Source: Acidobacteria bacterium 13_1_40CM_65_14
GTDB lineage: Bacteria > Acidobacteriota > Vicinamibacteria > Vicinamibacterales > CAVVIG01
DNA: 64,000 bases
Assembly: GCA_001917905.1 (NCBI GenBank)
Contig: MNEX01000136.1
Coordinates: 10,711-74,710, forward strand
Reading direction: 5' to 3'
Shown: one piece after another, positions 1,961 to 62,259 of the stretch
Numbering within the stretch: the stretch's first letter is position 1
Layout: each line of letters starts with the position of its first letter
Program-made: the position numbers and the translations under genes
Notes under the pieces: generated by a model
The model's input: the letters and a program-made list of their open reading frames with translations, nothing else
Told to the model about the DNA's origin: nothing
The model's database searches: none

Positions 1961-2052
1961 TCTCCACCGCTGAGGACACGGAGGACAGGAGGTGCAAACC
2001 TGAAGAAAAAAGTACATTGCCTCTGTGTCCCCGTGTCCTCCGTGGTGGCGAG
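1961..2052. repeat. Intergenic hairpin repeat (GAGGACACG-type arms)
   Basis: ctccaccgctgaggacacggaggacaggagg ... cctctgtgtccccgtgtcctccgtggtggcgag inverted arms. Lies between the SRP RNA and the dnaX start. Same element type as 5461, 18978 and 49325. Confidence 0.8.
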
Positions 2053-2086
2053 TTGTAATTCTGCAACGCGCTTTTCGGGCTGATGG

Positions 2087-2218
2087 CTTGCGGATTGAAC
2101 CGCAGTCCGGAAAACCTGCGGCACATTACAGGATCTGCTTAGCGCTGCTGCCTTCCGGCCCTGACGCGGTTCGCAGTCTGGAATTGCACAGGTTCCGGAC
2201 CGCGGTGCAATCCGCAAG
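2087..2218 (-). ncRNA. ffs: Signal recognition particle RNA (small/4.5S type)
   Basis: Minus strand reads ...GCGUCAGGGCCGGAAGGCAGCAGC..AGCAGAU.., the conserved domain IV motif with a GGAA tetraloop. Long closing helix: cttgcggattg..ggtccggaacctg pairs with caggttttccggac..caatccgcaag. Usual position upstream of dnaX. Confidence 0.85.
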
Positions 2219-2229
2219 GGTCAACTTTA

Positions 2230-3060
2230 CTACACAGGCACGCGCGTCGCGAGCAGCAGATACTTCGCGAGCACCTCGCCGACGACGACGGTGAAGAAAT
2301 CGACATAGAGAATGCCGGTCGCCGATTGGGTCGAGCGGATCTTCGCCGTCTCCCACGTGAGATACGACAGCAAAGCCGGCCCTGCAAGTCCGAAGAGCAC
2401 GCGCTGCCAGAAAAAAATCCCGGCGACCGACGTGATGTAGTGGCGAAAGCTCGGTCCGAGGCCAGGCTGCCCTGGAGACGACGTCGCGATCGCGAGAAAC
2501 ACCGCCGCCCCGACGACCGCGACGCGGACGATCATCGACGCGATGTGGACCTTGACGATCGACTGCAGATGCGAGACCTGCATCGACGGCAGGATGAGAT
2601 ACCAGTGGCCGAGCATCATCGCCGTGCACGCGCCGCCGAGGAGCGCGGCGGAGCTGAGAAAGCTCGCGACCGTCAGCACTTGCATCGGCAGCGCGCGATC
2701 GGCCGCCAGCGCGAGCGCCTGAAGAACGACCGCGAGGAGACCGCCGCCCACCGCGATGACGACGAGCGCCGGCCGAACCTTGGCGAGCATGCGTCCGATC
2801 GTCGCCCAATAGAGAACGAGTGCCGCCTCGGCGGCGTCGAGCGTGAGCACGGCGAGTTGTGAGAGTCGTGTGGGTGGCGGATCGCCTGGATTGGCGCCGC
2901 CGTAATAGAACGCCAGCGCAATCGCGATGAGAATCGCGGCGAGCCCCGCGTTGAACCGAAAAAATTTCACGCCCGCGTCGCGCGAGACGAAGACGAGCGT
3001 GAACGCAATGCCGACGCCGAGGTGCGCGAGGAAGAGAAACAGAATCGTGGACAGAGACAT
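2230..3060 (-). CDS. Polytopic inner-membrane protein, function unknown
   Basis: 276 aa, about 8 hydrophobic segments (MSLSTILFLFLAHLGVGIAFTLVFV...). No family recognised. Confidence 0.6.
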   Translation of the reverse strand: MSLSTILFLFLAHLGVGIAFTLVFVSRDAGVKFFRFNAGLAAILIAIALAFYYGGANPGDPPPTRLSQLAVLTLDAAEAALVLYWATIGRMLAKVRPALVVIAVGGGLLAVVLQALALAADRALPMQVLTVASFLSSAALLGGACTAMMLGHWYLILPSMQVSHLQSIVKVHIASMIVRVAVVGAAVFLAIATSSPGQPGLGPSFRHYITSVAGIFFWQRVLFGLAGPALLSYLTWETAKIRSTQSATGILYVDFFTVVVGEVLAKYLLLATRVPV

Positions 3061-3127
3061 CTAGCGCAGATCCTGGATGACGGAATCCATTTCTCCTCCG
3101 TCTGATTTGGGGCTTAGACGGGGCAAC

Positions 3128-3230
3128 GGGGAGAAAGGATGGATGGTCAGGGCGGGATGGGCAGGATGGGCCGGAAAGAACTCGCAGCTTTCCATCCCGC
3201 GCCTATCCCGCCTTTCCTGCCCTTCCTGCC
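3128..3230. repeat. Intergenic hairpin repeat (GGGATGG-type arms)
   Basis: ggcgggatgggcaggatggg ... ccatcccgcgcctatcccgcc. Begins right at the SOD stop. Confidence 0.65.
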
Positions 3231-3832
3231 TATTTACCCAGCCGCTTGTTGATTTCGGTCCAGTTGACGACGTTCCACCACGCGTCGATGTAGTCCGGCC
3301 GGCGATTCTGGTACTTCAAGTAGTAGGCGTGCTCCCACACGTCGACGCCGAAGACGATCTTCTTGTTTTCCATCAGCGGGCTGTCCTGGTTCGCGCTGCT
3401 TTCGACCACGAGCTTGCCGCCCTGATCCAGCACCCACGCCCACCCGCTGCCGAAGCGGCCGACGCCCGCCTTCTTCACTTCGTCCTTGAACTTGTCGAAG
3501 CTCCCGAACGACGAGTTGATCGCGCCCGCGATCGCGCCGGTCGGCGCGCCGCCGGCTTTTGGTCCCATGATCTGCCAGAACATCGTGTGGTTGGCGTGGC
3601 CGCCGCCGTTGTTGCGGACGGCGGTGCGAATGTCCTCTGGCACACTGCTGATGCCGCGCAGCAGATCCTCAATGCTCTTCGACTGCAGCTCGGGATGCTT
3701 CTCGAGTGCGGCGTTCAAGTTGGTGACGTACGCCTGATGATGCTTGCCGTGATGAATCTCCATCGTCCTCGCATCGATGTGCGGCTCGAGTGCATCGAAG
3801 GGATATGGAAGGGGCGGAAGTGAGTGAGCCAT
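3230..3832 (-). CDS. Fe/Mn-family superoxide dismutase
   Basis: 200 aa. [32 protein letters not shown] ... [25 protein letters not shown] Shine-Dalgarno upstream. Confidence 0.95.
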
Positions 3833-3882
3833 CGAACGTCCTCCTTATGCGCGTCGTCGATCGTGAAAGACCGACGATCGTA

Positions 3883-5372: not shown

Positions 5373-5460
5373 CAGTATAACACCCGGCAGGGCGCCGCTA
5401 TTCCTTAAGGCTGGGCGCCGCCGCGCTCGACCGTTAGGAGCCGCATTGCAGGATTGAACT

Positions 5461-5551
5461 CTCCACCACGAAGGACACGGGGGACGCGGAGGAAAATCCT
5501 GTTTTGAACAGGTTTGAACCTCCTGTCCTCCGTGGCCCCCGTGGTGGCGAG
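5461..5551. repeat. Intergenic hairpin repeat (GAGGACACG-type arms)
   Basis: ctccaccacgaaggacacgggggacgcggagg ... cctcctgtcctccgtggcccccgtggtggcgag. Confidence 0.8.
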
Positions 5552-5568: not shown

Positions 5569-6669
5569 CTACAAGGCGTGCTCGACCACTCGATATAACG
5601 TGTCGCGCTCGACGGGTTCGCGCCCCGCCGCGCGGATGAGCCGTTCGATCTCGCGCGTCGACATCGACGTCGGCGTCCGCGACCCGGCCATGTGGTAAAT
5701 CTTCTCTTCCTGCACGGTGCCGTCAAGGTCGTCGGCGCCGAACCACAAGCAGGTCTGCGCCACCTCCACGCCGGTCGCAATCCAGAACGCTTTCACGTGA
5801 TCGATGTTGTCGCACATCAGCCGCGCGACGGCATGGACGCGCAGCGTGTCGGCCGCGCTCGGCGCCGGCAGCTGGCGCATCTGGTTGTTGTCGGGATGGA
5901 ACGCGAGCGGGATGAACGCCTGGAAGCCGCCGGTCTCGTCCTGCAGCGCCCGCGCGCGCAGCATGTGATCGACGCGCTCTTCGCTCGTTTCGATGTGCCC
6001 GTAGAGCATCGTGACGTTGGTGCGCATGCCAAGCCGATGCGCCGTGCGATGGATCTCGAGATAGCGTTCGGTGCCGCACTTGTCGTGCGCGATCTTCCGG
6101 CGCACGCGCTCGGCGAAGATCTCGGCGCCCCCGCCGGGCAGCGAGTCGAGCCCCGCGGCCATCAGCTCGCGCAGCACCTGCTCGTCGGTCATGCCGTAGA
6201 GATCCGCGAAGAACGCGATCTCGACCGCGGTGAAACATTTCAGATGAATGTCCGGCCGGATGCGCTTGAAGCCGCGCAGCATCTCCGTGTAATAGTCGAA
6301 CGGCAGATCCGGATGCAGGCCGTTGACGACGTGGATTTCGGTGAGCGGCTGATGGGCGCGCTGGCGCAGCTTGTCCCACACCTGCTCGAGCGTCATCGTG
6401 TAGGCGTCGGTGTCGCCGGGCTTCAGCCGCGCGAACGAGCAGAACAGACAGCTCGCGACGCACACGTTGGTCGCCTCGAGCCGGATGTTGTAGTTGTAGA
6501 ACGTGCGCGGACCGTGGCGCTTCTCGCGCTCGCGATTCGCCAGCCAACCGACCGCGAGGAGATCCGGTGAATCGAAGAGACGCCGGCCGTCCTCCAGGCC
6601 AAGACGAGCACCACGATCAAGTTTTTCAGCGATGTCTGCGAGGCCGGAGGACCGTAGACGGGACAGCAT
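5569..6669 (-). CDS. Radical-SAM menaquinone (futalosine pathway) enzyme, MqnE/MqnC family
   Basis: 366 aa. NIRLEATNVCVASCLFCSFAR (CxxxCxxC), GGGAEIF, FIPLAFHPDN. I cannot separate MqnE from MqnC by eye; the AFAR context looks more MqnE-like. Confidence 0.8.
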   Translation of the reverse strand: MLSRLRSSGLADIAEKLDRGARLGLEDGRRLFDSPDLLAVGWLANREREKRHGPRTFYNYNIRLEATNVCVASCLFCSFARLKPGDTDAYTMTLEQVWDKLRQRAHQPLTEIHVVNGLHPDLPFDYYTEMLRGFKRIRPDIHLKCFTAVEIAFFADLYGMTDEQVLRELMAAGLDSLPGGGAEIFAERVRRKIAHDKCGTERYLEIHRTAHRLGMRTNVTMLYGHIETSEERVDHMLRARALQDETGGFQAFIPLAFHPDNNQMRQLPAPSAADTLRVHAVARLMCDNIDHVKAFWIATGVEVAQTCLWFGADDLDGTVQEEKIYHMAGSRTPTSMSTREIERLIRAAGREPVERDTLYRVVEHAL

Positions 6670-6740
6670 TTGGTAATCGGGGAATTTGGGTAATCGAGTA
6701 ATTGAATGACCAGATTACCCGATTATCCAATTTCCCAATG
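6670..6740. repeat. Intergenic hairpin repeat (GGTAATC-type arms)
   Basis: ttggtaatcggggaatttgggtaatcgag ... cagattacccgattatccaatttcccaatgg. Confidence 0.6.
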
Positions 6741-9916: not shown

Positions 9917-10000
9917 TTGATTCGGCACGCTGATCAAACACAATGGACACAAAGGACACAAAGGAAGGTGTGTTGATTCAGTGCCGCTACGCCGAATCGA
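9917..10000. repeat. Hairpin repeat (GGACACAAA units in the loop)
   Basis: ttgattcggcacgctgatcaaacaca ... tgtgttgattcagtgccgctacgccgaatcga. Lies after the receptor stop. Confidence 0.6.
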
Positions 10001-10708: not shown

Positions 10709-10787
10709 CACGAAAGCACGAACCCGCGAAACCACGAAACGAAACCGGATATCTGTTTCGTGTTTTCGTGTTGTCGTCTTTTCGTGG
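10709..10787. repeat. Intergenic hairpin repeat (CACGAAA-type arms)
   Basis: cacgaaagcacgaacccgcgaaaccacgaaacgaaacc ... gtttcgtgttttcgtgttgtcgtcttttcgtgg. Confidence 0.75.
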
Positions 10788-12611: not shown

Positions 12612-13537
12612 TCGGCGGTGCGGCGGCACGAAGAACGCAGAGGGCGCAAAGCTCGCAAAGAAACGCCTTTCTGTCACAGCAGAGTGAACCGTGCTTTGCG
12701 GTCTTGGCGGCCTGTGCGTTCTTCTTTCTATCGGCAGGCGCCGTGCACACCCAGGCGCGGCGCGTGGTGTCCATCATTCCCGCGACGACAGAAATGCTGT
12801 TCGCGATGGGTGCGGGTGATCGACTCGTCGCCGTCGGCAGCTACGACCGCTTTCCATCGGAGGTCGAGAAGCTGCCGCGCGTCGGCGCCCTGCTCGATCC
12901 GGCGGTCGAACGGATTATCGCGATGCGTCCGGATCTCGTGATTCTCTACGGCACGCAGAACGAGCTTCGGACGCAGCTCGACCGCGCGCAGATTGCGTAC
13001 TACTCGTACACGCATCGCGGGCTGACCGATATCACCGAGACCATTCGGTCGCTGGGCGCGCGCGTCGGCGTCGCTCCACGCGCAAACGCCCTGGCCGACA
13101 GCATCGAGCGGCAGCTCGCCGACATCAGGTCGCGCGTCGCCACGAGTCCGAGGCCGAAGACGCTGCTCGTGTTCGGACGCGAGCGCGGCACGCTGAGGAA
13201 CATCGACGCGAGCGGCGGCGTGGGATTCCTGCACGACATGCTCGAAACCGCCGGCGGCGCCGACGTCATGGGCGACGTGAAGCAGCAGTCGGTCATCATG
13301 ACGACGGAGCTGGTGCTGGCGCGGGCGCCGGAGGTGATCATCGAGCTCAGGTACGCGCGCGGCGACGACACCAACGCCACTGACCTGCGCGAGTGGAACG
13401 CGCTGCCGTCGGTGCCGGCGGTGAAGAACCACCGCGTATACATGCTGCGCGGTGAAGAATTCGTCGTGCCCGGTCCTCGCGTCGCCGCGGCCACCGAGCG
13501 CTTGGGCCGCCTCCTGCACCCCGAGGCGTTCAAATGA
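12584..13537 (+). CDS. Periplasmic substrate-binding protein, BtuF/FhuD-like
   Basis: RRVVSIIPATTEMLFAMGAGDRLVAVGSYDRFP ... PDLVILYG. The start is uncertain. The signal-peptide-like CFAVLAACAFFFLSAGAVHTQA is encoded by a repeat arm. Confidence 0.8.
   Translation: MAAVQATRVIGGAAARRTQRAQSSQRNAFLSQQSEPCFAVLAACAFFFLSAGAVHTQARRVVSIIPATTEMLFAMGAGDRLVAVGSYDRFPSEVEKLPRVGALLDPAVERIIAMRPDLVILYGTQNELRTQLDRAQIAYYSYTHRGLTDITETIRSLGARVGVAPRANALADSIERQLADIRSRVATSPRPKTLLVFGRERGTLRNIDASGGVGFLHDMLETAGGADVMGDVKQQSVIMTTELVLARAPEVIIELRYARGDDTNATDLREWNALPSVPAVKNHRVYMLRGEEFVVPGPRVAAATERLGRLLHPEAFK
12627..12725. repeat. Hairpin repeat (CGCAGAG/GCAAAG-type arms)
   Basis: gcacgaagaacgcagagggcgcaaagctcgcaaag ... ctttgcggtcttggcggcctgtgcgttcttc. 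Confidence 0.75.
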
Positions 13538-18977: not shown

Positions 18978-19060
18978 CTCCACCACAGAGGACACGGGGG
19001 ACACGGCGTGGCAAACCTGTTTGGTGAGCAGGTTTGAACCTCCGCGTCCTCCGTGGTAGC
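18978..19060. repeat. Intercistronic hairpin repeat (GAGGACACG-type arms)
   Basis: ctccaccacagaggacacgggggacacgg ... cctccgcgtcctccgtggtagc. Between hscB and hscA. Confidence 0.8.
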
Positions 19061-25291: not shown

Positions 25292-25906
25292 ATGACCCAC
25301 CTCGGCGGTTGGTTGTTCCGCCACCGCACGATCATTCCGCTTCCGCTCGCGATCGCCGTGCTGCTGCTGCGGATCGGCGAGGCGCCGCCTTCCAAATGGC
25401 TCATCGCAAGCGGGATCGGCCTCACGTTGACGGGCGAAGCGATCCGGTTGTGGGCCGTTCACCACATCGGCGCGATCTCGCGGACGCGAAGCGATCGCCT
25501 CGGCCCGCTCATCGCCGCCGGGCCGTTCGCAGTGGTGCGCAATCCGCTCTATCTGGGGAACATCGCACTGTGGGCAGGGTTTGCGATGGCGGCCCGGCTC
25601 CTCTGGCTGGTGCCGGTCATCGTCGTGCTGCTCGCGGTGGAATATCACGCGATCGTGCGCTGGGAGGAGCAGGTGCTCGAAGCGCGCTACGGTGACGAGT
25701 ATCGTGCGTACGCCGCGCGCGTGCCGCGATGGTGGCCCACGTTCAACCGCGGAGCGCGCAGAACTCGCAGAGAAAACGTGTTCTCTGCGAACTCAGCGAA
25801 CTCCGCGGTTGCTTTCTCCTGGCGCGAGACGCTGTTCAGCGAGCGCGGCACGCTCATCGCCATCGCAGCTGGATTTTTCCTGCTCTGGCTCAAACTTAGA
25901 ACTTAG
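25292..25906 (+). CDS. Isoprenylcysteine carboxyl / phospholipid methyltransferase-family membrane protein
   Basis: GPFAVVRNPLYLGNIALWAGFA ... EEQVLEARYGDEYRAYAARVPRWWP. The C-terminal tail runs through two repeats. ATG at 25292 preferred over TTG at 25265. Confidence 0.75.
   Translation: MTHLGGWLFRHRTIIPLPLAIAVLLLRIGEAPPSKWLIASGIGLTLTGEAIRLWAVHHIGAISRTRSDRLGPLIAAGPFAVVRNPLYLGNIALWAGFAMAARLLWLVPVIVVLLAVEYHAIVRWEEQVLEARYGDEYRAYAARVPRWWPTFNRGARRTRRENVFSANSANSAVAFSWRETLFSERGTLIAIAAGFFLLWLKLRT
25749..25807. repeat. Hairpin repeat (CGCAGAG-type) inside the 3' part of the methyltransferase ORF
   Basis: gcggagcgcgcagaactcgcagagaaaacgtgttctctgcgaactcagcgaactccgc. Confidence 0.7.
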
Positions 25907-25982
25907 AACTTAGAACCTAGAACTTCGAACTCAGAACCCAACCGAGCACAGTTCTAAGTTCTGAGTTTTGAGTTCTTAGTTC
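25893..25982. repeat. Hairpin repeat (AGAACTT-type heptamer arms) between convergent genes
   Basis: acttagaacttagaacttagaacctagaacttcgaactcagaac ... gttctaagttctgagttttgagttcttagttc. Both flanking stop codons lie inside the arms. Confidence 0.85.
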
Positions 25983-31617: not shown

Positions 31618-31680
31618 AAACGCAGAAACCGCAGAACACGCAGAGAAAGGCTTGCTCTGCGGATTCAGCGAGTTCTGCGT
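31618..31680. repeat. Hairpin repeat (CGCAGAA-type arms)
   Basis: aaacgcagaaaccgcagaacacgcagagaaaggcttgctctgcggattcagcgagttctgcgt. Confidence 0.8.
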
Positions 31681-31698
31681 CGAGCGGTGACACCACGA

Positions 31699-33950: not shown

Positions 33951-34060
33951 TTTCTTGACGAGCGCGGGGCCCCAGCCCCGCGCCTGACGCCCTCGAGGCT
34001 TTCTCCAATGCTCGCGGGGCCCCACCCCCGCTCGCCTCGCTCGCGCATTCGCACTCCCTC
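33951..34060. repeat. Two GC-rich palindromic elements upstream of the PilT-like gene
   Basis: gcgcggggccccagccccgcgc and gctcgcggggccccacccccgctcgcctcgctcgc. Confidence 0.7.
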
Positions 34061-45895: not shown

Positions 45896-45931
45896 GGGAC
45901 TTAGAACTTGGAAGTCAGAACTTAGAACGAG
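45896..45931. repeat. Tandem heptamer tract (AGAACTT-type), single arm
   Basis: gggacttagaacttggaagtcagaacttagaacgag. Confidence 0.6.
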
Positions 45932-47457: not shown

Positions 47458-48240
47458 GTCCTGCACGAAGGTGTACGGCGGCCACGGCCCGGTGAGCGTC
47501 AGGCCGTAGCCGTGACGAGAGAGCGCGCGCGCCTCGCGCGCCGCGAGCGCGCGAAACGTCTTCGATCGCGATCGCGGCACGAGAAACGCCGCGTCGAGCA
47601 GCGGCGGACCGCCGTGCGCCGGCAGCTCGGTCGCCGCCCGGCGCCGTGCGACGCGCGACTGGGCCGACAGTCGATCGTACAACGCGGCGACCGCTTCGCG
47701 TGCTCGCTCGGCGAGCTCGGTCGACGCGTCACGCTGAGCTTTCTTGCGCGACAAGTACGCGACGCCGGACGCGCCGGCCGCTCTCGTTCGAGCGGGCACG
47801 GCCGCCTCGGCGGCACGTGTACGATCAAGCACCACGCGGACGCCCCACTCGTAATGATTCGCGACGCGCTTCACCAGTGCGTCGATCCGCGATCGATCGG
47901 CGCGGATGTGCTCGAGCGCCCGTTCGTCGCTGTTGAAGATCGTCAATAGCTTCATCGGGAGCACGGCGGTCGCATCGATGAACGATTCGACGACGACTTC
48001 GTGCGCCACCGCCGCGCGCGAGACCCACTCGAGATCCGACAGGCCGCGATGAATCGCCGCCTCGCCGTATCGAGCGAGCGGCACGTCGGCGACGACGAGA
48101 TACCGGCCGCGCTCGAGATCGAGCAGCCGTACGCGTCCGGCGCCGGGCAATCCAGCCGGCACGCGCGACACGGTCGACAGCCGCGGCGCGCGCGGCGCCG
48201 CGACCACGCAATACACGTACGTGCCCGTCCCCTTAGCCAT
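47455..48240 (-). CDS. Gas vesicle protein GvpL/GvpF family (intact)
   Basis: MAKGTGTYVYCVVAAP ... AVLPMKLLTIF ... YEWGVRV ... LLDAAFLV ... LTGPWPPYTFV. Confidence 0.85.
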   Translation of the reverse strand: MAKGTGTYVYCVVAAPRAPRLSTVSRVPAGLPGAGRVRLLDLERGRYLVVADVPLARYGEAAIHRGLSDLEWVSRAAVAHEVVVESFIDATAVLPMKLLTIFNSDERALEHIRADRSRIDALVKRVANHYEWGVRVVLDRTRAAEAAVPARTRAAGASGVAYLSRKKAQRDASTELAERAREAVAALYDRLSAQSRVARRRAATELPAHGGPPLLDAAFLVPRSRSKTFRALAAREARALSRHGYGLTLTGPWPPYTFVQD

Positions 48241-50371
48241 CAGCCTGAGCCCTGTCGAGCGTCCACCATCGCGCCCAGCGATCGAGCGCGCGCACACCGC
48301 GCGGCGGCGGCGCCGACAACGGGGTTTGGATGATAACGCACTCGCGCGACCGCGCGCCGCAGCGCCGGCGCAGCGCCGCGAGCGACCGCCGCTCCGTCGC
48401 CGCGGTGGCACGGCACCGCGTGCAGCGGCCCGGGGCCAGCGTCATCGCGTTGACGATGACGGCGGGCGCGGCGAGCGTCAGACGCCGCAGGCGGGTCAAG
48501 AGACGCTCGGTTTCGAACCGCGGGACTTCGGCTGCGCGCGTGACGACGAGGAAGCGCGTGTGCGACGCGTCGCGGAGGATCGTCTGCAGTTCGCGAATCG
48601 ACTTCGACACGTCGACCAATTCGGCCGCGAGCTGTCCCGGGCGAACGAGCGATTTGTATTTCAGCAGCATGCGCAGCAGCACCTGGACCCACTCGCGCGC
48701 CGCGTCGGGCAGCTCCAGCAGTCGTAAGGCGTGACCGGTCGGCGCGGTGTCGACGATGATGACGTCGTATTCACTGGCGCGTGGGGCCCCACCCCCACGC
48801 GCTGAAGACCTCGCGCTCGAGCGTAGACTCTCGCGCTCGGGTGTGAGAAGCCGGGTCACCTCGAGGATGCCGAAGAGCTCGTCGACACCCGGCGGTGCGA
48901 GATCCATCAACTCGGCCGCGCCGCGCGGGCCGCCGGCGCTCGCGTCGGCGCCGAACGAGTGGGCGATCTCATCGAGCGCGTGCTCGAGATCGACGCGTCG
49001 TGCGGCGAGCGCCCGCGCCGCGTCGAGCTCGCGGATGAACAAGTTCGCTGGGCCGCCGCGGACGGCCTTCGGCGTATCGCCGATGGCCTCCTTTCTCGCA
49101 TCGAGTACATCCGCGATCGAGTGCGCGGGATCAGTCGACAGCAGCAGCATCCGCCGATCCGGATGCGCGCGCGCCAACCGTATCGCCGCCGCCGTCGATA
49201 CCGTCGTCTTCCCGACGCCGCCCTTGCCGCCGACGAAGAGCAGCTTCGCGCCGCGAAGGACGTCAAGCGATTCGGGCGAAACGGTGCGCTCGCCTTTCGG
49301 GGCACTCAGCGCGAACGGAACCCTCTCTTCACCACGGGGGCGACGGAGGACACGGAGGGCCAAACCAGTTTTTTTCTCCGTGTCCTCCGCGTCCTCCGTG
49401 GTGGAGAGTGTCGTACCGATCTTGGCGAGCGCAGCCACGCCTCGCGGCTCGCGCAGACTGGCCGGGATGATGCGCAGCGTTCGCCCGCGACCGAGACGGC
49501 GTGTGATCCGGGCGATGACACGCTGTTCATCGGCGCGCCGGCGATCGCAGATGGGACACGGTCCGGCCGCGGGCAGCACCCGGTTGACGATGATCTCTGC
49601 GGCGTGCATCCCGTTGGTCTCGAGCGCCGCGAGACCGTCTTCACTCTCGGCGAGCGACAGCGCTTCGGGCAGCGTCACCCAGCAGAACGTCGTGCGCTGC
49701 CGATCGCGGAGCGTCTCGCCGGTCTCACGCGCCTGCTCGGCGAGCCGTGCGATCAGTCGATCGGCGGCTTCGGGCCGGCCGACACGCGCGAGCTGCTCGC
49801 GAATCAGCCGATGCTCCGCCTGCAGCGCATCGAGGATGCCGGCGACCACCGCCACGGTCTGCGGTGACGCGAGCAGCCGGAGGGTGTGACCGGTCGGCGC
49901 GGTATCGACGACGATGTGATCGTAGCGACGCGAGTCGGCGAGCCTCGCGATTTCGAGGATGCCGGCGAGCTCGTCGACGCCCGGCAGCGACAAATCCAGG
50001 AGCGTGTCGACGTCGGCGCGATCGAGCCAGGTGCCGTGCTCGAGCGCCTCGCCGAGCGCCGCGCCATGCTCACCAATCCACCGCGCGAAGGCGCGCGGCG
50101 CGTCGAGCTCGACGGCCGTCAACCCGCGCCGGATCGCGCGCGGTGACGCCGCGAGCTGCACGCCCAGCGCGTCGCCGAGGGAATGCGCGGGATCGGTCGA
50201 CACCACGAGCACGCGTGCGCGCTTGCCCCGCCGAAGCGCTGAAAGCGCGCAGGCGGACGCCGCCGCGCACGTCGTCTTCCCCACGCCGCCTTTCCCGCCA
50301 TAGAAGATGAATCTCGGGAAGCTCGAAAAGTTTGAAGTCTGAAGTTTGAAGTCTGAACGGCGAGATCTCAA
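48233..50371 (-). CDS. Tandem (fused double) ArsA/Get3-family ATPase with CxxC in each half
   Basis: Two halves, each with GGKGGVGKTT, STDPAHS and DTAPTGH(T/A)LRLL, plus IVNRVLPAAGPCPICDRRR / IVNAMTLAPGRCTRCRAT. 8-nt overlap with the gvpL start. Confidence 0.85.
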   Translation of the reverse strand: MRSRRSDFKLQTSNFSSFPRFIFYGGKGGVGKTTCAAASACALSALRRGKRARVLVVSTDPAHSLGDALGVQLAASPRAIRRGLTAVELDAPRAFARWIGEHGAALGEALEHGTWLDRADVDTLLDLSLPGVDELAGILEIARLADSRRYDHIVVDTAPTGHTLRLLASPQTVAVVAGILDALQAEHRLIREQLARVGRPEAADRLIARLAEQARETGETLRDRQRTTFCWVTLPEALSLAESEDGLAALETNGMHAAEIIVNRVLPAAGPCPICDRRRADEQRVIARITRRLGRGRTLRIIPASLREPRGVAALAKIGTTLSTTEDAEDTEKKTGLALRVLRRPRGEERVPFALSAPKGERTVSPESLDVLRGAKLLFVGGKGGVGKTTVSTAAAIRLARAHPDRRMLLLSTDPAHSIADVLDARKEAIGDTPKAVRGGPANLFIRELDAARALAARRVDLEHALDEIAHSFGADASAGGPRGAAELMDLAPPGVDELFGILEVTRLLTPERESLRSSARSSARGGGAPRASEYDVIIVDTAPTGHALRLLELPDAAREWVQVLLRMLLKYKSLVRPGQLAAELVDVSKSIRELQTILRDASHTRFLVVTRAAEVPRFETERLLTRLRRLTLAAPAVIVNAMTLAPGRCTRCRATAATERRSLAALRRRCGARSRECVIIQTPLSAPPPRGVRALDRWARWWTLDRAQADG
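48775..48840. repeat. GC-rich palindromic element in frame inside the ArsA-like gene
   Basis: gcgcgtggggccccacccccacgcgc..ctcgcgctcgagcg..ctcgcgctcgg. Encodes ESLRSSARSSARGGGAPRAS just before YDVIIVDTAPTGH. Confidence 0.75.
49325..49409. repeat. GAGGACACG-type hairpin repeat forming the inter-half linker of the ArsA-like ORF
   Basis: ctcttcaccacgggggcgacggaggacacggaggg...ctccgtgtcctccgcgtcctccgtggtggagag. Translated as LSTTEDAEDTEKKTGLALRVLRRPRGEE. Confidence 0.85.
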
Positions 50372-50420
50372 GGCCGGAAATCTTCAGGCTTCATACTTCA
50401 GACTTCAGACTTCATACTTG
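50327..50420. repeat. Hairpin repeat (TGAAGTC heptamer arms) between gvpG and the ArsA-like gene
   Basis: aaaagtttgaagtctgaagtttgaagtctgaa ... ttcatacttcagacttcagacttcatacttgaa. Covers the ArsA-like ATG (50371). Confidence 0.85.
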
Positions 50421-50422
50421 AA

Positions 50423-50713
50423 TCAGCCTTCAGACTTCCAACTTTCGACCTCGACGCCGGAGATCTTGTCCTTGGAGGACATCGTGATGGCGCCCTGCTG
50501 CTGACCCTTGATCTCGCGGATGCGCGCGAGCACGTCCTTTTCGATCTGCGCGAACTCCTCATCGGAGATCTCGCCGAGCTCCAGCCGCATCTGCGCTTCG
50601 AGCAGCTGCTCGCGCAGCGCCGTGTCGTCGTTCATCTCCGCCTCCGCGGCGGCGACGACCTTGTCGAGGACGAAACGCAGGCTGCCAATCAAGAGCGTGT
50701 CGAGGATGAACAT
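50423..50713 (-). CDS. gvpG: Gas vesicle protein GvpG
   Basis: MFILDTLLIGSLRFVLDKVVAAAEAEMNDDTALREQLLEAQMRLELGEISDEEFAQIEKDVLARI. Confidence 0.8.
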   Translation of the reverse strand: MFILDTLLIGSLRFVLDKVVAAAEAEMNDDTALREQLLEAQMRLELGEISDEEFAQIEKDVLARIREIKGQQQGAITMSSKDKISGVEVESWKSEG

Positions 50714-50726
50714 GACAGGAACATGA

Positions 50727-50810
50727 GATTGCAGAGTTCAGAGTTCAGATTTCAGATTGGATTTCAGATTCAATCTGCAATCTGCAATCTGCAATCTGAA
50801 ATCTGAAATG
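50727..50810. repeat. Hairpin repeat (CAGATTT / CAATCTG heptamer arms) between gvpF and gvpG
   Basis: gattgcagagttcagagttcagatttcagattggatttcagatt caatctgcaatctgcaatctgcaatctgaaatctgaaatg. Confidence 0.85.
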
Positions 50811-51744
50811 TCACGCTCGCTCGAGCTTCAGCCGGATGTTCACGAAGTTGTACGGCGGCCACGGCCCCGTGTACTTGAACGTCAGCTTGTCGAGGCGGCC
50901 GGCGATCGATTTCACCTTCACGTCGAACGCCGTTTCCTGACGCGACCGACACTTCCTTGAGCTGCTCGAGGATGTCGGCGACGTAGCGCTCGGACCGGGC
51001 CTGCAGCGCCGAATCGATCAGGCGGCCGTACTGCATGCGCGCGAAGTAGGTCGGACCCTTCTGGCCGGAGATCTCCTTCTTCAGCCGGCTGATGTCCTCG
51101 TCCTCGTGCTCGACCTCGCGAATCGCCTGATCGCGATCCCAGAGCACCTTCAAACCGAACTCGAGCTTGTTCTGCATCTTGTCCAGCACGTCGCCGAACG
51201 CTACGGCCGCCGATCGCAGCAGCTCGACGATGTCTTCACGCGTCTTGAAAATCGTGCCGAACGACATCGGGATGACGGTGTGCTCGCGCATCACGGTTTC
51301 GTTCACGCGCTCGTGCGCGAGCACGTTTTCACGCGTCGAGTCGAGGACCTCGAGTGGCGCATCAGAGACGACGGCGGCGAGGCTCTTGTAGTGCACCGTG
51401 TACACCTCGGAAGGATCGGCCCCGATGCCAACCGGGCCGAAGCGCAGCGCATCGGGCGCTTCGATGATGCAGTACACGTATTTGCCGCGGCTCGCGCCCG
51501 TGGCCGCATCGGTCGACGGCGACACGCGGCCGCCGTGCAGGACTTTCTCTGACGCGCGGCGCTCGATCCGCCTCGCTTCGCGCGGCGCCGCCTTCGCCGC
51601 GCGCACGGCCCCGTTCGGCCTCGCCGGCCGGGCGACCGGCGCCGCGGATTTCTTTCGGCCCGCCTTCACGCCCGTTTTCACGCCCGCCCCGACGGCACCG
51701 CGCCCTCGCTCGCCCTTCGGCGCGCTACCCGATGCTTTTCGCAT
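50811..51744 (-). pseudogene. GvpF/GvpL-family gene with frame disruption near 50935-50950
   Basis: The N-terminal and middle parts (GKYVYCIIEAPD...VIPMSFGTIF...LEFGLKVLW...DILEQLKEVSVA) are in one frame. The family C-terminus RQETAFDVKVKSIAGRLDKLTFKYTGPWPPYNFVNIRLKLERA* (stop 50811-50813) is in another. The start is ATG 51744 or GTG 51525. Confidence 0.75.
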
Positions 51745-56068: not shown

Positions 56069-56123
56069 GAACGCAAAGCCCGCGAAGACCGCAGAGAGAA
56101 TTCTCTTTGCGTCCTTTGCGACC
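56069..56123. repeat. Hairpin repeat (CGCAAAG/CGCAGAG-type arms)
   Basis: gaacgcaaagcccgcgaagaccgcagagagaattctctttgcgtcctttgcgacc. Confidence 0.75.
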
Positions 56124-56130
56124 TGTGGGT

Positions 56131-56538
56131 TCAATCGTTGGTCCGGTATTCGGCGAAGGATGTCGGTGTTTCCCAGACGGTCACGCGGACGACAGGCAAT
56201 CCGTGCTCCGCCGCCTTGTCGAAGATCAGCCGCGCAATGCGCTCGACCGTCGGGTTGCTGTCGACGATGTAAATGGGCTCGCCCAGCGTCTGCAGCGGCG
56301 CGACGAGCGGATCGTCCTGGCGCAGGATCATCTTGTGGTCGAGCTCGCGGTCGATCCACCCCTTGACCACGCGCTTGATATCGCTGAAATCGCAGACCAT
56401 GTTGCGGTTGTCGAGCGTCCCGGTCCGCACTTCGATCTCGGCCACCGCGTTGTGGCCGTGGGGATGCTTGCAGATGCCGTCGTAGTCGAGCAGCCGGTGG
56501 CCGTAGCAGAAATCTATCCGTTTCGTGACGGAGTACAT
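56131..56538 (-). CDS. queD: 6-carboxy-5,6,7,8-tetrahydropterin synthase QueD
   Basis: MYSVTKRIDFCYGHRL...CKHPHGHN ... WETPTSFAEY. Confidence 0.9.
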   Translation of the reverse strand: MYSVTKRIDFCYGHRLLDYDGICKHPHGHNAVAEIEVRTGTLDNRNMVCDFSDIKRVVKGWIDRELDHKMILRQDDPLVAPLQTLGEPIYIVDSNPTVERIARLIFDKAAEHGLPVVRVTVWETPTSFAEYRTND

Positions 56539-56605
56539 TTTTTCTTTCTCGCGTGGGGCCCACCCCCACGCGCCGCCACGCCTCGCCTTCGGCTCGGCGC
56601 GCTGG
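56539..56605. repeat. GC-rich palindromic element immediately upstream of queD
   Basis: Gene strand: GCCGAGCCGAAGGCGAGGCGTGGCGGCGCGTGGGGGTGGGCCCCACGCGAGAAAGAAAAAATG. Confidence 0.8.
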
Positions 56606-56659
56606 TCAGCAGCGACTTTCCGCTCAGTCAACTTCTGCCGGACGCGGCCGATTGTGTCA

Positions 56660-59662: not shown

Positions 59663-61185
59663 TGGGTACGCGGGCCGACGTCGTCGCGCTGAATCAACTA
59701 TCTTCTTTCCTTCGCGTGCTTTGTGTCCTCTGTGTCCTTTGTGTTCCGTCAGCCCTGGCGTCAGGCATTACCGCCGCCGTGCAGGACCAGCCGTCGCCGA
59801 CGAAGGGCGTCGTCAAGAAGGGCAAGGTCCCGGTCTCGAACGAGATTCTGAAAATCAGGCTGCCCAAGCCAGTGGAAGCCGATCTGCCGAACGGCCTCCA
59901 CCTCATGGTCCTCGAGGATCATCGGCTGCCGCAGGTCTCGTTTCAGATCTTCATTCCGGGTGCCGGCGGCTATTATGACCCGGCCGATCAACCCGGCTTG
60001 GCCTCGTTCGTGGCGGCGCTGATGCGCGAAGGCACCGTGTCGCGTCGCTCCGAACAGATTTCGCAGCAGCTCGAAGTGATGGCCGCGAACTTGACGCTCA
60101 CGGCGGGAGCCTCGAGCGTCGAGGCGACGATCGCCGGCTCGAGCCTCAGCGATCAAATCGATCGGCTGCTCGACGTGACGGCCGACGTGCTGCTCCACCC
60201 ATCGTTTCCCGAAGAGGAGCTCGCGCGGTACAAACAGCGCACGCGCGCGCAGCTGATGCAGCAGCGTGCGAATCCCAATTTCCTCGCGGCCGAGATGTAC
60301 AGCCGCGTGGTGTACGGCGCGCATCCAGCCTCGCGGTTGTCGTCGTCGGTCGCCGCGCTGGATCGCGCGACACGAGACGGGCTGACGTCCTTTCACCGCG
60401 CGCACTACGTACCGGATCACGCCGCCATGGCGGTGGCGGGCGACATTTCAGTGGCGGAGGCGCGCAAGCTCGTCGAGGCCAAGTTCAGTGCCTGGACGAA
60501 AACCGGCGCCGCTGCGCCGGCCGTCTCCGATCCGTCGGCGCTCGCCGGCTCGAAGATCCACTTCATTGGGCGGCCGAATTCCGTGCAGACGACATTGATC
60601 GTCGGCACCCAAGCGATCGCGCGGACCAATCCGGATTACGACGCGCTGCAGGTGATGAATCGAGTGATCGGCGGCGGGCCGACCGGCCGGTTGTTCATCC
60701 ACTTGCGCGAGGAGAAGGGCTACACCTACGGGGCGGGCAGCGCGCTGAACGCGGCCATGTTCCGCGGCGACTGGTCCGCGTCGACCAGCGTGCGCACCGA
60801 AGTGACCGAGCCGGCACTCAACGATCTGCTCGCGGAAATCGGTCAGCTTCGCGATCAGCCGGTGTCGGATCAGGAGCTTGCCGACGCCACACGCGCGATG
60901 GTTGCGTCCTTCGCGTTGTCGCTCGAGTCGCCGGCGCAGTTGCTGAACTATCACGTCACGCGGTGGCGGTACAAGCTGCCGGCGGATTACTGGGACAAGT
61001 ATCCGGACCGGATCTCGGCGGTGACGACGGCGCAGATCCAGGCGGCCGCGCGAAGGTACCTGCTGGCCGAGCGGATGCAGATTGTCGCGGTCGGCGACCC
61101 CGCGAAAGTCGCCGACACGCTCAAGAAGCTCGGTGAAGTGGAGATTTACGATGCCAACGGAAAACGCATCTCGTCGTCGTTCTGA
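59659..61185 (+). CDS. M16-family peptidase, second (HxxEH-less) subunit
   Basis: 508 aa. M16 fold pattern (NGLHLMVLEDHRLPQVSFQIF...) without HxxEH. Overlaps the stop of the upstream M16 gene. Confidence 0.85.
   Translation: MMGTRADVVALNQLSSFLRVLCVLCVLCVPSALASGITAAVQDQPSPTKGVVKKGKVPVSNEILKIRLPKPVEADLPNGLHLMVLEDHRLPQVSFQIFIPGAGGYYDPADQPGLASFVAALMREGTVSRRSEQISQQLEVMAANLTLTAGASSVEATIAGSSLSDQIDRLLDVTADVLLHPSFPEEELARYKQRTRAQLMQQRANPNFLAAEMYSRVVYGAHPASRLSSSVAALDRATRDGLTSFHRAHYVPDHAAMAVAGDISVAEARKLVEAKFSAWTKTGAAAPAVSDPSALAGSKIHFIGRPNSVQTTLIVGTQAIARTNPDYDALQVMNRVIGGGPTGRLFIHLREEKGYTYGAGSALNAAMFRGDWSASTSVRTEVTEPALNDLLAEIGQLRDQPVSDQELADATRAMVASFALSLESPAQLLNYHVTRWRYKLPADYWDKYPDRISAVTTAQIQAAARRYLLAERMQIVAVGDPAKVADTLKKLGEVEIYDANGKRISSSF
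59708..59747. repeat. Tandem 9-nt tract (GGACACAAA-type, single arm) inside the M16B signal peptide
   Basis: ccttcgcgtgctttgtgtcctctgtgtcctttgtgttcc, encoding LRVLCVLCVLCV. Confidence 0.7.
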
Positions 61186-61195
61186 AGACAACAGG

Positions 61196-61259
61196 CAACG
61201 CAGAGACCGCAGAACCCGCAGAGAAAACCAGCTCTGCGTGTTCGGCGTGTTCTGCGTTG
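61196..61259. repeat. Hairpin repeat (CGCAGA-type arms) between convergent genes
   Basis: caacgcagagaccgcagaacccgcagagaaaaccagctctgcgtgttcggcgtgttctgcgttg. Confidence 0.8.
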
Positions 61260-61270
61260 TACGTTCGTGA

Positions 61271-62167
61271 TCAGAAGCGCCGGAGCGTGATCGAGCCGTC
61301 ACCCGTGCGGACGCGCACGTTCGGGCCACCGGAACCGAGCCGGCCGCGGACATTGTTCCGGCTAATTTTTCCGCTGACGTTCGACAGCGTGATGTCGTTC
61401 ATGCGGATGCCGCCATCGCCGGTGTGCGCGTCGAGCTCGCCGTTGAAGCCGTCGGGCAATTCCAGCGTCACCGATCCGTCGCCGGTCACGATGTCCCAAT
61501 CGGACTCCGGCGCGCTGCCCGCGTCGGCGTGAATCGTCACGTTGCCGTCGCCAGACCGCGCGCGGACGCTCGTCATCTTTCCGCTTGCGGTCACGCTGCC
61601 GTCGCCCGTGTCCACGTCGAGTGCGCCGTTGACGCCCTCCAGTTTGATGGGGCCGTCGCCGGTATGCGCTCGCACGTCTCCGGCGAGGTTCCGGCCTCGA
61701 ATGCTGCCATCGCCCGTCCGCAGCTCGAGGCGGCCGGAGATGCGGTCCACGTCAATTGAGCCGTCGCCGCTCCTGGCCGCGATGTTCGCGGTCGCCGGCA
61801 CGGAGACGATGAGCTTCGCCGATCGCGAGTAGTTGAAGTGGATGCCGAAGCCACTCGTCTTCTGCGTCTTGACGTCGACGGTCACCTGATTGCCCTTCTG
61901 GTCCGCGTGAATCTCGATCGTCGCGGCCGCTTCCTTCGAGGTCGCGCGCTTCTCGATGATCACCTCGACCTCGGGCTTGTCCCACGCACGAATCTCAATC
62001 GCGCCGTCGAAGGTCGACAACACGACGTCCGGCGTCCCGCTGGTCGAGAAGCGCTTTTCCTCGCGCTCGACGTACTTGTTGAAGTCGGCGCCGTCCAGGT
62101 TGATGCAGCCAGGGCCGACGAGCAGCAGCACGAAGGAGCCAACGACGAACGTTGAGCGCAAAGCCAT
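61271..62167 (-). CDS. DUF4097-type beta-helical repeat protein (putative adhesin-like), lipoprotein-like leader
   Basis: Repeated (T/S)GDGS(I/V) every ~20 aa: SGDGSIDV, TGDGSIRG, TGDGPIKL, TGDGSVTA, SGDGNVTI, TGDGSVTL, TGDGGIRM, TGDGSITL. Confidence 0.75.
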   Translation of the reverse strand: MALRSTFVVGSFVLLLVGPGCINLDGADFNKYVEREEKRFSTSGTPDVVLSTFDGAIEIRAWDKPEVEVIIEKRATSKEAAATIEIHADQKGNQVTVDVKTQKTSGFGIHFNYSRSAKLIVSVPATANIAARSGDGSIDVDRISGRLELRTGDGSIRGRNLAGDVRAHTGDGPIKLEGVNGALDVDTGDGSVTASGKMTSVRARSGDGNVTIHADAGSAPESDWDIVTGDGSVTLELPDGFNGELDAHTGDGGIRMNDITLSNVSGKISRNNVRGRLGSGGPNVRVRTGDGSITLRRF

Positions 62168-62209
62168 GACGACAGCCTCCCGCCGCTTAGACGGCCATTC
62201 CGAACCGCG

Positions 62210-62259
62210 AGTTCTCAGTTCAACGTTCTCAGTTCAAAGCGCTTAGTTCTCAGTTCTCG
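62210..62259. repeat. Tandem GTTCTCAGTTC tract
   Basis: gagttctcagttcaacgttctcagttcaaagcgcttagttctcagttctcg. Overlaps the nagA stop. Confidence 0.65.

Follow-up and report, generated by a model that had tools for sequence, protein, structure and literature searches.

Two known systems come closest to the elements described here: in Xanthomonas, inverted pairs of GGGAATC heptamers, and in Rickettsia, palindromes that code for protein. In Xanthomonas and Nostoc, GGGAATC and GGGGA(C/T)T repeats form tandem heptamer arrays of 2-26 units that are 89-93% intergenic, lie at a mean distance of 28 nt from the upstream ORF and are found mostly between co-oriented or convergent genes and rarely between divergent ones; each genome has 70-75 sites at which convergent pairs could fold into stem-loops, and close species differ in the length and sequence of these repeats (Rehm et al. 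2015, PMC4692102). Rickettsia RPEs are families of dispersed palindromes inserted in frame, at structurally tolerant positions, in unrelated housekeeping genes, and no element-encoded enzyme is known for them (Ogata et al. 2000, 2002, summarized in PMC10969869).

REPs and REPIN-BIMEs, mobilized by RAYTs (Y1 HUH transposases) whose gene is usually bordered by the repeats, are abundant extragenic palindromes at gene 3′ ends whose doublets form long hairpins; there are several families per genome, they are devoid of target-site duplications and they can stabilize the upstream mRNA (PMC3333891, PMC3733652). The TAACTGA repeats of Beggiatoaceae are mainly intergenic tandem heptamers that close relatives lack at the corresponding spacer; arrays are mostly direct (a single indirect set out of 170 in the 'Maribeggiatoa' genome) and typically located just upstream of start codons (PMC4679880). 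These repeats and the STRR repeats of cyanobacteria resemble the present elements as tandem intergenic heptamers but form mostly direct arrays of one predominant unit. The STRR heptamers were reportedly described by Mazel et al. in 1990 as short, tandem and intergenic. Eukaryotic Foldback transposons have long inverted arms of short tandem subrepeats and little or no internal sequence; they are kilobase-scale and have target-site duplications, and their likeness to the elements found here is architectural only. Our literature search found no description of the latter in Acidobacteriota.

The elements of the window (the whole 64-kb stretch of soil acidobacterial DNA analyzed) consist, like the Xanthomonas-type pairs, of two convergent short-unit arrays within ~50 nt of an ORF end and are rare between divergent genes. 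However, the Xanthomonas type is dominated by a single G-rich unit, read as G-quadruplex-forming, whereas here many units, mostly without G-tracts, occur side by side, there are families of 9-nt units whose termini and loops are defined, and some copies are genic and in frame. These last behave like RPEs, being found in a PEMT gene (compared across 80 loci), in the signal peptide of a binding protein and in an ArsA-like linker (28 codons). RPEs are about 150 bp long, lack tandem 7-9 nt units and occur in Rickettsia; the present elements thus differ from them in length, architecture and taxon.

Detection and stability of the elements

The preliminary description reported about 20 hairpins with arms made of tandem 7-9 nt units. 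This observation is largely real: hairpin calls based on inverted-repeat tables, TRF tables and RNA folds identified strong single hairpins with arms of 2-6 tandem copies at 16 of the 20 loci, whereas the four others are tandem arrays without hairpin (Table 1). Element length ranges from 55 to 125 nt. RNA-folding z of the 16 hairpins is between -3.5 and -8.7, none of 200 dinucleotide shuffles folding equally well, compared to -1.6 to +1.2 for the four arrays.

Table 1. Tandem-unit elements of the window, with their RNA-folding z relative to dinucleotide shuffles and their genetic context
Element	Locus	Coordinates	Strand	Type and unit	z	Context
E1	1960	1960..2052	.	family A hairpin, unit GAGGACACG, termini CTCTCCACC...GGTGGCGAG	-6.1	49 nt downstream of SRP RNA gene, 44 nt upstream of dnaX start
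E2	3128	3128..3233	.	hairpin, 9-nt unit GGGCAGGAT/GGGATGG	-3.6	overlaps sodA stop codon (3230-3232) by only 2-4 nt
E3	5461	5459..5551	.	family A hairpin	-7.8	17 nt past stop of CofH-like gene, upstream of nadA; site empty in relative L001
E4	6670	6668..6736	.	hairpin, units GGTAATCG/GGGAATTT	-5.7	occupies YjbQ-CofH spacer; additional unpaired 5′ unit abuts CofH start codon
half element	9917	9938..9965	+	tandem ACACAAAGG array, family A variant, without real hairpin	-1.6	at or just upstream of N-terminus of Diphthami_syn_2 (PF01902)-family gene
E6	10709	10709..10786	.	hairpin, 8-nt unit CACGAAAC	-5.3	between stop of PF01902-family gene (10692) and ABC ATPase start (about 10808)
E7	12627	12630..12724	+	family B hairpin, CGCAGAG plus 2 nt, 3 units per arm	-5.8	FecCD/periplasmic binding protein junction; 3′ arm is hydrophobic core of signal peptide; entire element in frame with GTG at 12606, which overlaps FecCD TGA
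E8	18978	18978..19060	.	family A hairpin	-5.6	isc operon, between hscB (stop 19067-19069) and hscA (start 18966)
E9	25749	25744..25811	+	family B hairpin	-8.7	in frame inside PEMT gene (25292..25906), between conserved PRWxP and FSWRxTLFSERGT
E10	25893	25893..25982	.	heptamer AGAACTT hairpin	-8.0	convergent PEMT/HhH-GPD junction; holds stop codons and last codons of both genes
E11a	31618	31619..31680	.	family B hairpin	-6.0	10 nt past stop of ORF 31183..31608
E11b	31699	31696..31768	.	family B hairpin	-6.6	4 nt from stop of convergent T2SSE-domain gene (31773..34025)
half element	45896	45899..45928	.	ACTTAGA heptamer array, without hairpin	+0.1	upstream of likely true start of OEP gene
E12	49325	49325..49408	-	family A hairpin, 84 nt (28 codons)	-7.9	in-frame linker between two ArsA-type halves, ORF 48233..50371
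E13	50327	50328..50452	.	heptamer TGAAGTC hairpin	-7.4	outer units are last 6 residues and stop of GvpG; holds only available start (TTG 50371) and about first 13 codons of ArsA-like gene
E14	50727	50726..50813	.	heptamer CAGATTT/CAATCTG hairpin	-4.6	one arm is last 14 residues and stop of GvpF/L (50770..51744)
E15	56069	56069..56132	.	family B hairpin	-3.5	overlaps stop of PTPS gene (56131..56631) by only 2-4 nt; directly adjoins separate 163-nt palindrome (55906-56068)
half element	59708	59708..59750	+	pyrimidine arm of family A type, CTTTGTGTC repeated, without hairpin	+0.4	VLCVLCVLCV, hydrophobic core of M16 peptidase signal peptide
E17	61196	61196..61259	.	family B hairpin	-7.1	between convergent genes, 10 nt past M16 peptidase stop and 11 nt before DUF4097 stop
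half element	62210	62210..62258	-	AGTTCTC heptamer array, without hairpin	+1.2	last residues TRTEN and stop of amidohydrolase gene

A strict detector (TRF array of period 6-12 with a reverse-complement partner within 110 nt) revealed 11-12 elements per 64-kb window, compared to a mean of 0.2 and a maximum of 2 in 30 first-order Markov simulations. A sliding RNALfold scan at -30 kcal/mol flagged 348 regions and was uninformative because the sequence is 65% GC; most elements were missed by a gapless inverted-repeat scan, and noise also limited an einverted-style scan and a filter on arm periodicity. The same elements are present in the independent assemblies L004, L086 and L087, and unit number is unchanged between strains at 99.7-99.9% identity. 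Since these strains carry identical elements, the latter are neither assembly artefacts nor hypervariable contingency loci.

Families of repeat units

The statement that the unit differs from one locus to another was exaggerated. Several unit types do coexist (at least eight in 64 kb) but three families recur: family A (GAGGACACG/ACACAAAGG) at six window loci, family B (CGCAGAG plus 2 nt) at six and family C (AGAACTT) at three. Family A copies from four unlinked window loci and from other genomes have in common their 11-nt termini (CTCTCCACCAC...GTGGTGGAGAG) as well as an asymmetric motif in the loop, C(A/T)GGTTTG(A/G)NCCTCC, which occurs in both orientations. Doubled A or B units number 10 in the window and 20 in 427 kb of Vicinamibacteria-like loci, but none was found in 1.3 Mb from other phyla; judging from these loci, the unit families with conserved termini and loop motifs are specific to Vicinamibacteria. 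Copies within a genome diverge by roughly 20-30%, so that nothing points to a recent burst.

Family B has a conserved, paired 7-nt core whereas the 2-nt spacers are variable and often unpaired, which generates regularly interrupted stems. Such a pattern would be consistent with arrayed duplex-DNA sites bound by a nucleoid-associated protein, by a regulator or by a protein of the iteron type, the functional unit being the 7-nt core (e.g. CGCAGAG at 9-bp spacing, in inverted blocks) and the hairpin being incidental. We consider this most improbable, given the many unrelated cores within a single genome, the copies located in coding sequences, their absence from promoter-bearing divergent spacers, the lack of a candidate binding protein and a 9-bp spacing that is off the helical repeat.

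The G-tract unit of the Xanthomonas type (GGGNATC, G-quadruplex, about four units preferred) is not that of families A, B and C; G-runs are found only in E2 and in relative L005 (GGGATTC), and neither in these three families nor in the other heptamers. REPs carry a GTAG or CGTC tag ending a 20-40 nt palindrome and have a single imperfect palindrome per arm, whereas here the arms are tandem units, no tag was seen (family A begins with CTCTCCACC and family B with (G/C)AAC(G/C)GC) and no RAYT was found among about 40 window ORFs. MITEs have terminal inverted repeats bordered by target-site duplications, and their termini are shared with an autonomous insertion sequence; here the inverted repeat spans the element from end to end, but family A and B copies lack flanking direct duplications both in the window and at the PEMT site, and the flanks of family A show neither target-site duplication nor conserved target. 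The CAAC...GTTG ends of family B do not fit the RYYYAAC...GTTRRRY of integron attC sites, which lie 3′ of promoterless cassettes arrayed beside intI, and the elements sit in core housekeeping operons rather than in cassettes. No sequence is shared with RPEs, and no element matches Rfam 15 at gathering thresholds, the only hits in the window being the SRP RNA (2102-2200) and a cobalamin riboswitch (7394-7584).

Location relative to genes and putative roles in RNA

The preliminary description placed all the hairpins between genes, close to stop codons. This is true for many of them, 13 intergenic copies starting or ending at most 18 nt from a stop codon, but at least three copies are in frame inside genes (E9 in a loop of PEMT, E7 in the signal peptide of the binding protein and E12 in the ArsA-like linker), the 59708 array is coding, and E10, E13, E14 and the 62210 array contain stop or C-terminal codons of adjoining genes. 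E13 also supplies a start codon. Closeness to stops is expected anyway, because the spacers were near zero length before insertion. Period-9 elements block 0.58 frames per strand, compared to 1.64 expected, and nine of the 26 heptamer elements leave none of the six frames open. The 9-nt-unit families, which keep the frame and are almost devoid of stops, can be read through in frame, whereas many heptamer arrays have a stop in every frame and are placed at gene ends, where they provide new stops. In the public annotations seen here, ORFs are extended through elements.

The absence of a clear U-tract was confirmed (no arm is followed by more than 5 T in 9 nt, on either strand), and the elements are indeed not classic intrinsic terminators: their stems are stable but lack the required run (about 6 or more U in 8-9 nt). 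Nor are they restricted to the ends of transcription units, since E8 (isc operon), E6 and E7 (btu-like operon) are intra-operonic and E9 and E12 are in coding sequences. The elements could nevertheless act in cis on RNA as U-tract-independent, often bidirectional terminators, exonuclease barriers or processing sites whose stem stability is selected. Besides the very high stability of the hairpins and their proximity to stops, this reading accounts for several features. All the convergent junctions examined carry a palindrome, three of them a tandem-unit element and two REP-like palindromes, and no copy lies in a clear divergent promoter spacer. The purine-richer arm is 5′ in 16 of the 16 window hairpins, on both strands (22 vs 3 elsewhere), and this 5′-purine/3′-pyrimidine polarity matches that of bidirectional terminators. 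Furthermore, the analogous repeats of Xanthomonas are mostly transcribed (PMC4692102).

However, the sense strand shows neither an excess of G·U pairs (26 vs 29 for the antisense strand in the window, 20 vs 33 in relatives and 46 vs 62 overall) nor additional stability, sense and antisense folding energies being equal (mean difference of 0.2 kcal/mol in relatives). With no asymmetry in G·U pairs or energy, selection on the sense RNA was rejected. In addition, several copies are in frame in coding sequences or separate genes whose translation is coupled, positions at which termination would do harm, and the same junctions are vacant in close relatives. Overall, an RNA-level function as the basis of these elements is unlikely. 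The structure-selected role initially suggested (3′-end protection, decay barrier or attenuation) is unsupported, given the lack of strand bias, the in-frame copies and the empty orthologous junctions. Co-variation of the arms, also put forward, is observed between families; within one orthologous family, compensatory changes affect only one of 11 pairs among 14 PEMT-site copies, which is not informative.

Orthologous sites in related genomes

In relatives, the orthologous junction often has no element and the genes overlap, or else it is occupied by another family. The hscB-hscA junction is filled in the window and in L002 (ACAAAGG variant), whereas L001, in which the two genes overlap by 4 nt, L003 and L005 have no element there. 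At the FecCD-binding protein junction, family B in the window is replaced by a hairpin of CACGAAAG in L005, and by an ATGA overlap without hairpin in L001 and L003. The YjbQ-CofH junction of L001 carries a hairpin of GATCGGGA units, the PF01902-family and ABC ATPase genes abut in L003, and the PEMT and HhH genes abut in most relatives, subsets of which carry differing heptamer hairpins.

The in-frame PEMT site was compared in 80 metagenome loci, in which the flanks PRWxP and FSWRxTLFSERGT are conserved. It harbors units of family B, of family A, AAGTCTC or CAGATTT, or remnants left by deletion, whereas a basal clade has a 15-17 aa linker without hairpin; families A and B alternate between sister lineages. 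The family B hairpin is still foldable across lineages at 65-100% protein identity and therefore needs maintenance or repeated renewal. With at least four element families, remnants and empty alleles at a single in-frame position, this site is a natural experiment that could be used to study the movement of repeats and their tolerance by proteins.

The hairpins could instead be purely local products, a small palindrome or array growing by replication slippage and one arm being copied onto the other by template switching (quasipalindrome correction or fold-back priming), without any movement between loci. The unpaired half arrays (four in the window; 56 unpaired vs 24 paired arrays in 296 kb), the strand symmetry of the pairing and the related units of orthologous hairpins (GGTAATC vs GATCGGGA; AGAACTT, AGAACGT and AAAACGT) are consistent with such a process. 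So is L002, where a perfect 4x TTTGTGTCC array makes up one arm and older unit variants are retained in the other. Moreover, the general over-representation of heptanucleotide repeats in bacteria has been attributed to slippage (work cited in PMC4679880 and PMC4692102). As a complete explanation it is nonetheless improbable: it leaves unexplained the identical 11-nt termini and asymmetric loop at unlinked loci and in different genomes as well as the replacement of family B by family A between sister lineages, and unit number is not polymorphic between nearly identical strains. The hairpin-generating mutational process evoked in the preliminary description could act at the DNA level, but its purely local version is insufficient alone.

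Origin and spread of the elements

The reading that we favor, and to which we would give about an even chance, is that these elements form a superfamily of dispersed palindromes comparable to REPINs, MITEs or RPEs, reshaped inside by slippage and with only incidental effects on RNA. Each copy would be a foldback with arms of 2-6 tandem units, and new copies would derive from existing genomic copies. Such copying between loci is suggested by families that recur, with identical 11-nt ends and a common loop motif, both at unlinked loci and beyond this genome, by the empty orthologous sites and by the replacement of one family by another at one site. Copies would persist only where a compact genome tolerates them, i.e. 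at junctions and in loops, linkers, signal peptides and C-termini. The inserted arrays would then be reshaped by slippage of units inside an arm, since in L002 one arm has been homogenized independently of the other. Arm complementarity would be a strand-symmetric property of DNA rather than one selected in the sense transcript, and effects on mRNA 3′ ends would be secondary and site-specific, most plausibly at convergent junctions.

Several observations do not fit easily with selfish palindromes. At least eight unit types in 64 kb is many for enzyme-specific families, and this counts against such elements, as does the palindrome carried by every convergent junction examined; the purine-5′ arm polarity is unexplained by them. 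The divergence between copies, the lack of target-site duplications and the continued foldability of the PEMT hairpin also speak against them. A Pfam scan of about 40 ORFs in 64 kb of a draft metagenome-assembled genome found no transposase or RAYT-like gene, and neither the window nor the relatives' loci examined showed an insertion sequence.

More tentatively, it is conceivable, if rather doubtful, that the elements belong to an unrecognized, phylum-spanning class of tandem-unit foldbacks whose copying depends on structure, for example by template switching from hairpin to hairpin or by a new route of single-stranded-DNA transposition. Its 9-nt families would routinely enter genes in frame and be recruited as linkers, signal peptides, C-termini, stops and starts, and the class would also explain the intergenic heptanucleotide excess long noted in Xanthomonas, cyanobacteria, Bacteroidota and others.

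If dispersal of selfish palindromes is confirmed, roughly a quarter of the gene junctions of an abundant soil lineage would hold such elements, which would rewrite gene ends, provide signal peptides and linkers, and mislead gene callers. It would also tie the excess of gene-adjacent, often inverted 7-nt tandem repeats in bacteria to the biology of mobile DNA. The different behavior of 7-nt and 9-nt units with regard to stop codons, the arm polarity and the replacement of families are all testable predictions.

Other palindromic sequences are present in the window. The inverted repeat at 2087-2218, beside E1, is the ffs gene (SRP RNA) and not an element, and ordinary REP-like GGGG...CCCC palindromes are located at 29872-29996, 36214-36299 and 47298-47393.

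Reality and composition of the elements

The window has a G+C content of 65%. Its HscA matches that of the soil MAG 'Acidobacteria bacterium 13_1_40CM_65_14' at 100% identity, and its next relatives by HscA are Vicinamibacterales. Pfam and Rfam searches revealed an ordinary housekeeping gene content: dnaX, sodA, nadA, the isc operon, a PEMT-family methyltransferase gene, HhH-GPD, an RND efflux system, a gvp cluster, M16 peptidases and queuosine genes, together with two Rfam features (see table). No transposase was detected by Pfam among about 40 ORFs of the window. E1, a copy of family A, is located 49 nt beyond the 3′ end of the SRP RNA gene.

Inverted-repeat and TRF scans recovered the 20 loci that the preliminary description had presented as hairpins, and single long hairpins were obtained on folding. 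Sixteen of these loci are strong hairpins (z-scores of −3.5 to −8.7 against dinucleotide shuffles, none of 200 shuffles folding equally well), whereas the four others (9917, 45896, 59708 and 62210) are only tandem arrays (z-scores of −1.6 to +1.2 in the same test). A strict detector, requiring a TRF array of period 6-12 and a reverse-complement partner at most 110 nt away, found 11-12 elements in the window compared to a mean of 0.2 in 30 first-order Markov simulations. The elements are stable within the species: they are base-for-base identical in three independent assemblies (L004, L086 and L087; 99.7-99.9% identity), which rules out both assembly artefacts and hypervariable loci.

Coordinates of the families and other features (window positions unless a locus is named)
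Feature	Position	Strand	Remark
SRP RNA gene	2102-2200	minus	Rfam; upstream of dnaX
Cobalamin riboswitch	7394-7584	+	Rfam; ahead of TonB-receptor/btu-like operon
Family A	1960 (E1), 5459, 18978, 49325 (E12)
Family A, half arrays	9938, 59708
Family B	12630 (E7), 25744 (E9), 31619, 31696, 56069 (E15), 61196		3 units per arm
Family C (AGAACTT)	25893 (E10), 45899, 62210
E13	50328-50452
E14	50726-50813
REP-like palindromes	29872-29996, 36214-36299, 47298-47393
Chitinophaga solisilvae L075 hairpins	1819-1939, 3238-3342, 7462-7582, 8209-8329, 21593-21715

The units do differ between loci, as initially noted, and several types occur at a single locus (TGAAGTC, CAGATTT, CACGAAAC, GGGCAGGAT and GGTAATCG). 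However, this variation is not arbitrary: three families, A, B and C, recur across loci. The consensus of family A is AACTCTCCACCAC-(GAGGACACG)n ... (CGTGTCCTC)n-GTGGTGGCGAG, and its loop carries a motif, C(A/T)GGTTTG(A/G)NCCTCC, that is asymmetric and is seen in both orientations. The family B unit consists of a 7-nt core, CGC(A/G)(G/A)AG, and a variable 2-nt spacer; since the cores pair and the spacers are often unpaired, its stems are regularly interrupted. A CRCRRAG theme is common to families A and B. With a G+C of 36-63%, the elements are richer in AT than the genome. Their 5′ arm is the purine-richer one in all 16 hairpins of the window, and purine-first elements also prevail at other loci (22 versus 3 pyrimidine-first); by symmetry, this polarity is true of both strands. 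Stop codons are nearly missing from period-9 elements (0.58 frames blocked per strand compared to 1.64 expected), a result whose effective sample is small because it comes mainly from two families, and all six frames are blocked in 9 of the 26 heptamer elements.

Placement relative to genes

All elements had been described as intergenic, which proved incorrect for E9, E12, E7 and the array at 59708, located in coding sequences. E9 lies in-frame within the PEMT gene (25292..25906), flanked by conserved protein segments. E12, probably an insertion, spans exactly 28 codons and is located in the linker that joins the two ArsA-type halves of a single ORF. E7 is situated in the interval from a GTG overlapping the FecCD stop (GTGA) to the mature periplasmic binding protein (BP), whose signal peptide has its hydrophobic core encoded by the pyrimidine arm of the element; a different signal peptide owes its VLCVLCVLCV stretch to the array at 59708. 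Other elements contribute gene ends: at E10, both convergent genes have their stops and last codons inside the element, GvpG takes its last six residues and its stop from E13, which also holds the only possible start and about 13 first codons of the next gene, and E14 encodes the last 14 residues of the GvpF/L protein, while the TRTEN-stop of an amidohydrolase comes from the array at 62210. The proximity to stop codons that had been attributed to all elements holds for the remaining copies (4-18 nt from the stop), and it would be expected anyway since the same genes abut or overlap in relatives. No element of the window is located in a clear divergent promoter spacer, but the counts are too low to test this firmly. 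Public gene calls read through the elements with 9-nt units (L004 15430-16383 and 3015-3629, and the corresponding window ORFs). For example, the annotated binding protein has 317 aa in L004 and the window compared to 284-286 aa in relatives, in which convergent genes are also called with an overlap of about 70 nt.

Orthologous sites and origin of the elements

Comparison of the isc and btu regions of five relatives (HscA identity of 87-100%) showed sites that are variably filled or empty. The window and L002 both have the hscB-hscA hairpin, but the units of L002 are now ACAAAGG, one arm being a perfect 4x array and the other carrying older variants; these genes overlap by 4 nt in L001 and are separated by short spacers in L003 and L005. 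The YjbQ-CofH junction carries GGTAATC-type units in the window versus GATCGGGA in L001, and the FecCD-BP junction carries family B in the window, CACGAAAG in L005 and an ATGA overlap in L001 and L003. L005 also has GGGATTC and AAAAGTY hairpins at further isc junctions.

The in-frame PEMT site was compared in 80 metagenome contigs. A basal clade has a linker of 15-17 residues without hairpin; elsewhere, the site carries family B, family A (L001, L112, L122), AAGTCTC (L118), CAGATTT (L123, L131) or deletion remnants, and the reading frame is kept in all lineages with elements or remnants. When the flanking protein is placed on a rough NJ tree, sequences bearing A and B are intermixed (for example, L001, with family A, is sister to L097, which is B-like). 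The convergent PEMT and HhH genes adjoin directly in most relatives, but subsets have AGAACTT, AACTGAG, GAAGTCT, AAAACGT, GGTTCTN or GGCTCAA hairpins, these heptamer elements taking the place of the last codons. One contig otherwise 99-100% identical to the window (L106, 440-560) lacks 54 nt (18 codons; window 25700-25753), including conserved PEMT residues and the outer portion of the 5′ arm of E9, with short direct repeats at the edges; this contig may represent either a genuine deletion allele or an error of assembly.

Position, stability and polarity would fit RNA-level terminators or stabilisers. The initial report that no clear U-tract is present was confirmed. Selection on pairing in mRNA should produce an excess of G·U pairs on the sense strand; none was observed (sense versus antisense, 26 versus 29 in the window and 20 versus 33 in relatives) and sense and antisense folding energies are equal. 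Pairing is strand-symmetric. The arm co-variation initially put forward holds between families, but among 14 orthologous family B copies just one of 11 pairs shows a compensatory change. Given that copies occur in coding sequences and inside operons, that the elements are not conserved and that a strand signature is missing, an RNA-level role appears unlikely. Purely local slippage and template switching would account for the half arrays (tandem arrays without hairpin) and for unit turnover, but not for the shared termini and loops, and is similarly doubtful. Protein-binding arrays on duplex DNA are a very improbable explanation.

The best-supported reading, to which we give about an even chance, takes the elements to form a superfamily of dispersed palindromic repeats. 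These repeats would be copied from locus to locus, copies would last only at permissive spots of a very compact genome, and unit slippage would rework them internally. Under this reading, one family was probably replaced by another at the same site.

Taxonomic spread and relation to known repeats

In a broad panel of 80 HscA loci from GTDB species, the detector also found similar tandem-unit hairpins in other Acidobacteriota (L007, L009, L025), in Binatia (L020), in a Treponema (L064) and in several Bacteroidota, including five in 22 kb of Chitinophaga solisilvae; about 150 kb of Nitrospirota loci yielded none. Families A and B proper are restricted to Vicinamibacteria-like sequences. The Chitinophaga hairpins (105-123 nt) are near-perfect, their outer arms consisting of heptamers and their inner stems being specific to each family; in Hymenobacter (L085, 16958-17092), (GGCTTAG)6 and a partial complement lie on either side of a canonical terminator (GC hairpin and T-tract). 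The architecture therefore reaches Bacteroidota.

The closest published description concerns the GGGAATC heptamers of Xanthomonas, found at 70-75 sites per genome as convergent pairs able to form stem-loops, near the upstream ORF and rarely between divergent genes, with an unresolved function (PMC4692102). In-frame placement resembles that of Rickettsia palindromic elements (PMC10969869). Assignment to REP/REPIN, MITE, attC or intrinsic terminators was rejected because defining features of each do not match. New here are the many unit families found side by side with defined termini and loops, the differences in stop-codon content and location between 9-nt and 7-nt elements, the fact that different families have repeatedly occupied a single coding site, and the lineage of the host.

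Other repeats of the window

The window also carries an unrelated, REP-like palindromic repeat of 39-42 nt (hairpin CCCCA(C/G)CGCG...CGCG(C/G)TGGGG). Three perfect copies are in-frame in a CoA-transferase III gene (29716..31020), adding HPSAHKPRAGDPGF x3 between conserved motifs, and the remaining arrays are placed where convergent genes meet. A 163-nt palindrome without tandem units (55906-56068; outer arms 93% complementary) directly adjoins E15 and overlaps the 5′ end of a HAD hydrolase ORF. Dense GC-rich tandem repeats with periods of 18, 24, 57 and 21 nt (32945-33261), within a 750-aa T2SSE-domain ORF (31773..34025), are probably a low-complexity coding region. Lastly, a 30-nt unit (CGGGGGCCCCTGCCCCCCGCTCCGCTGCG) is present twice within hscB (19393-19452).
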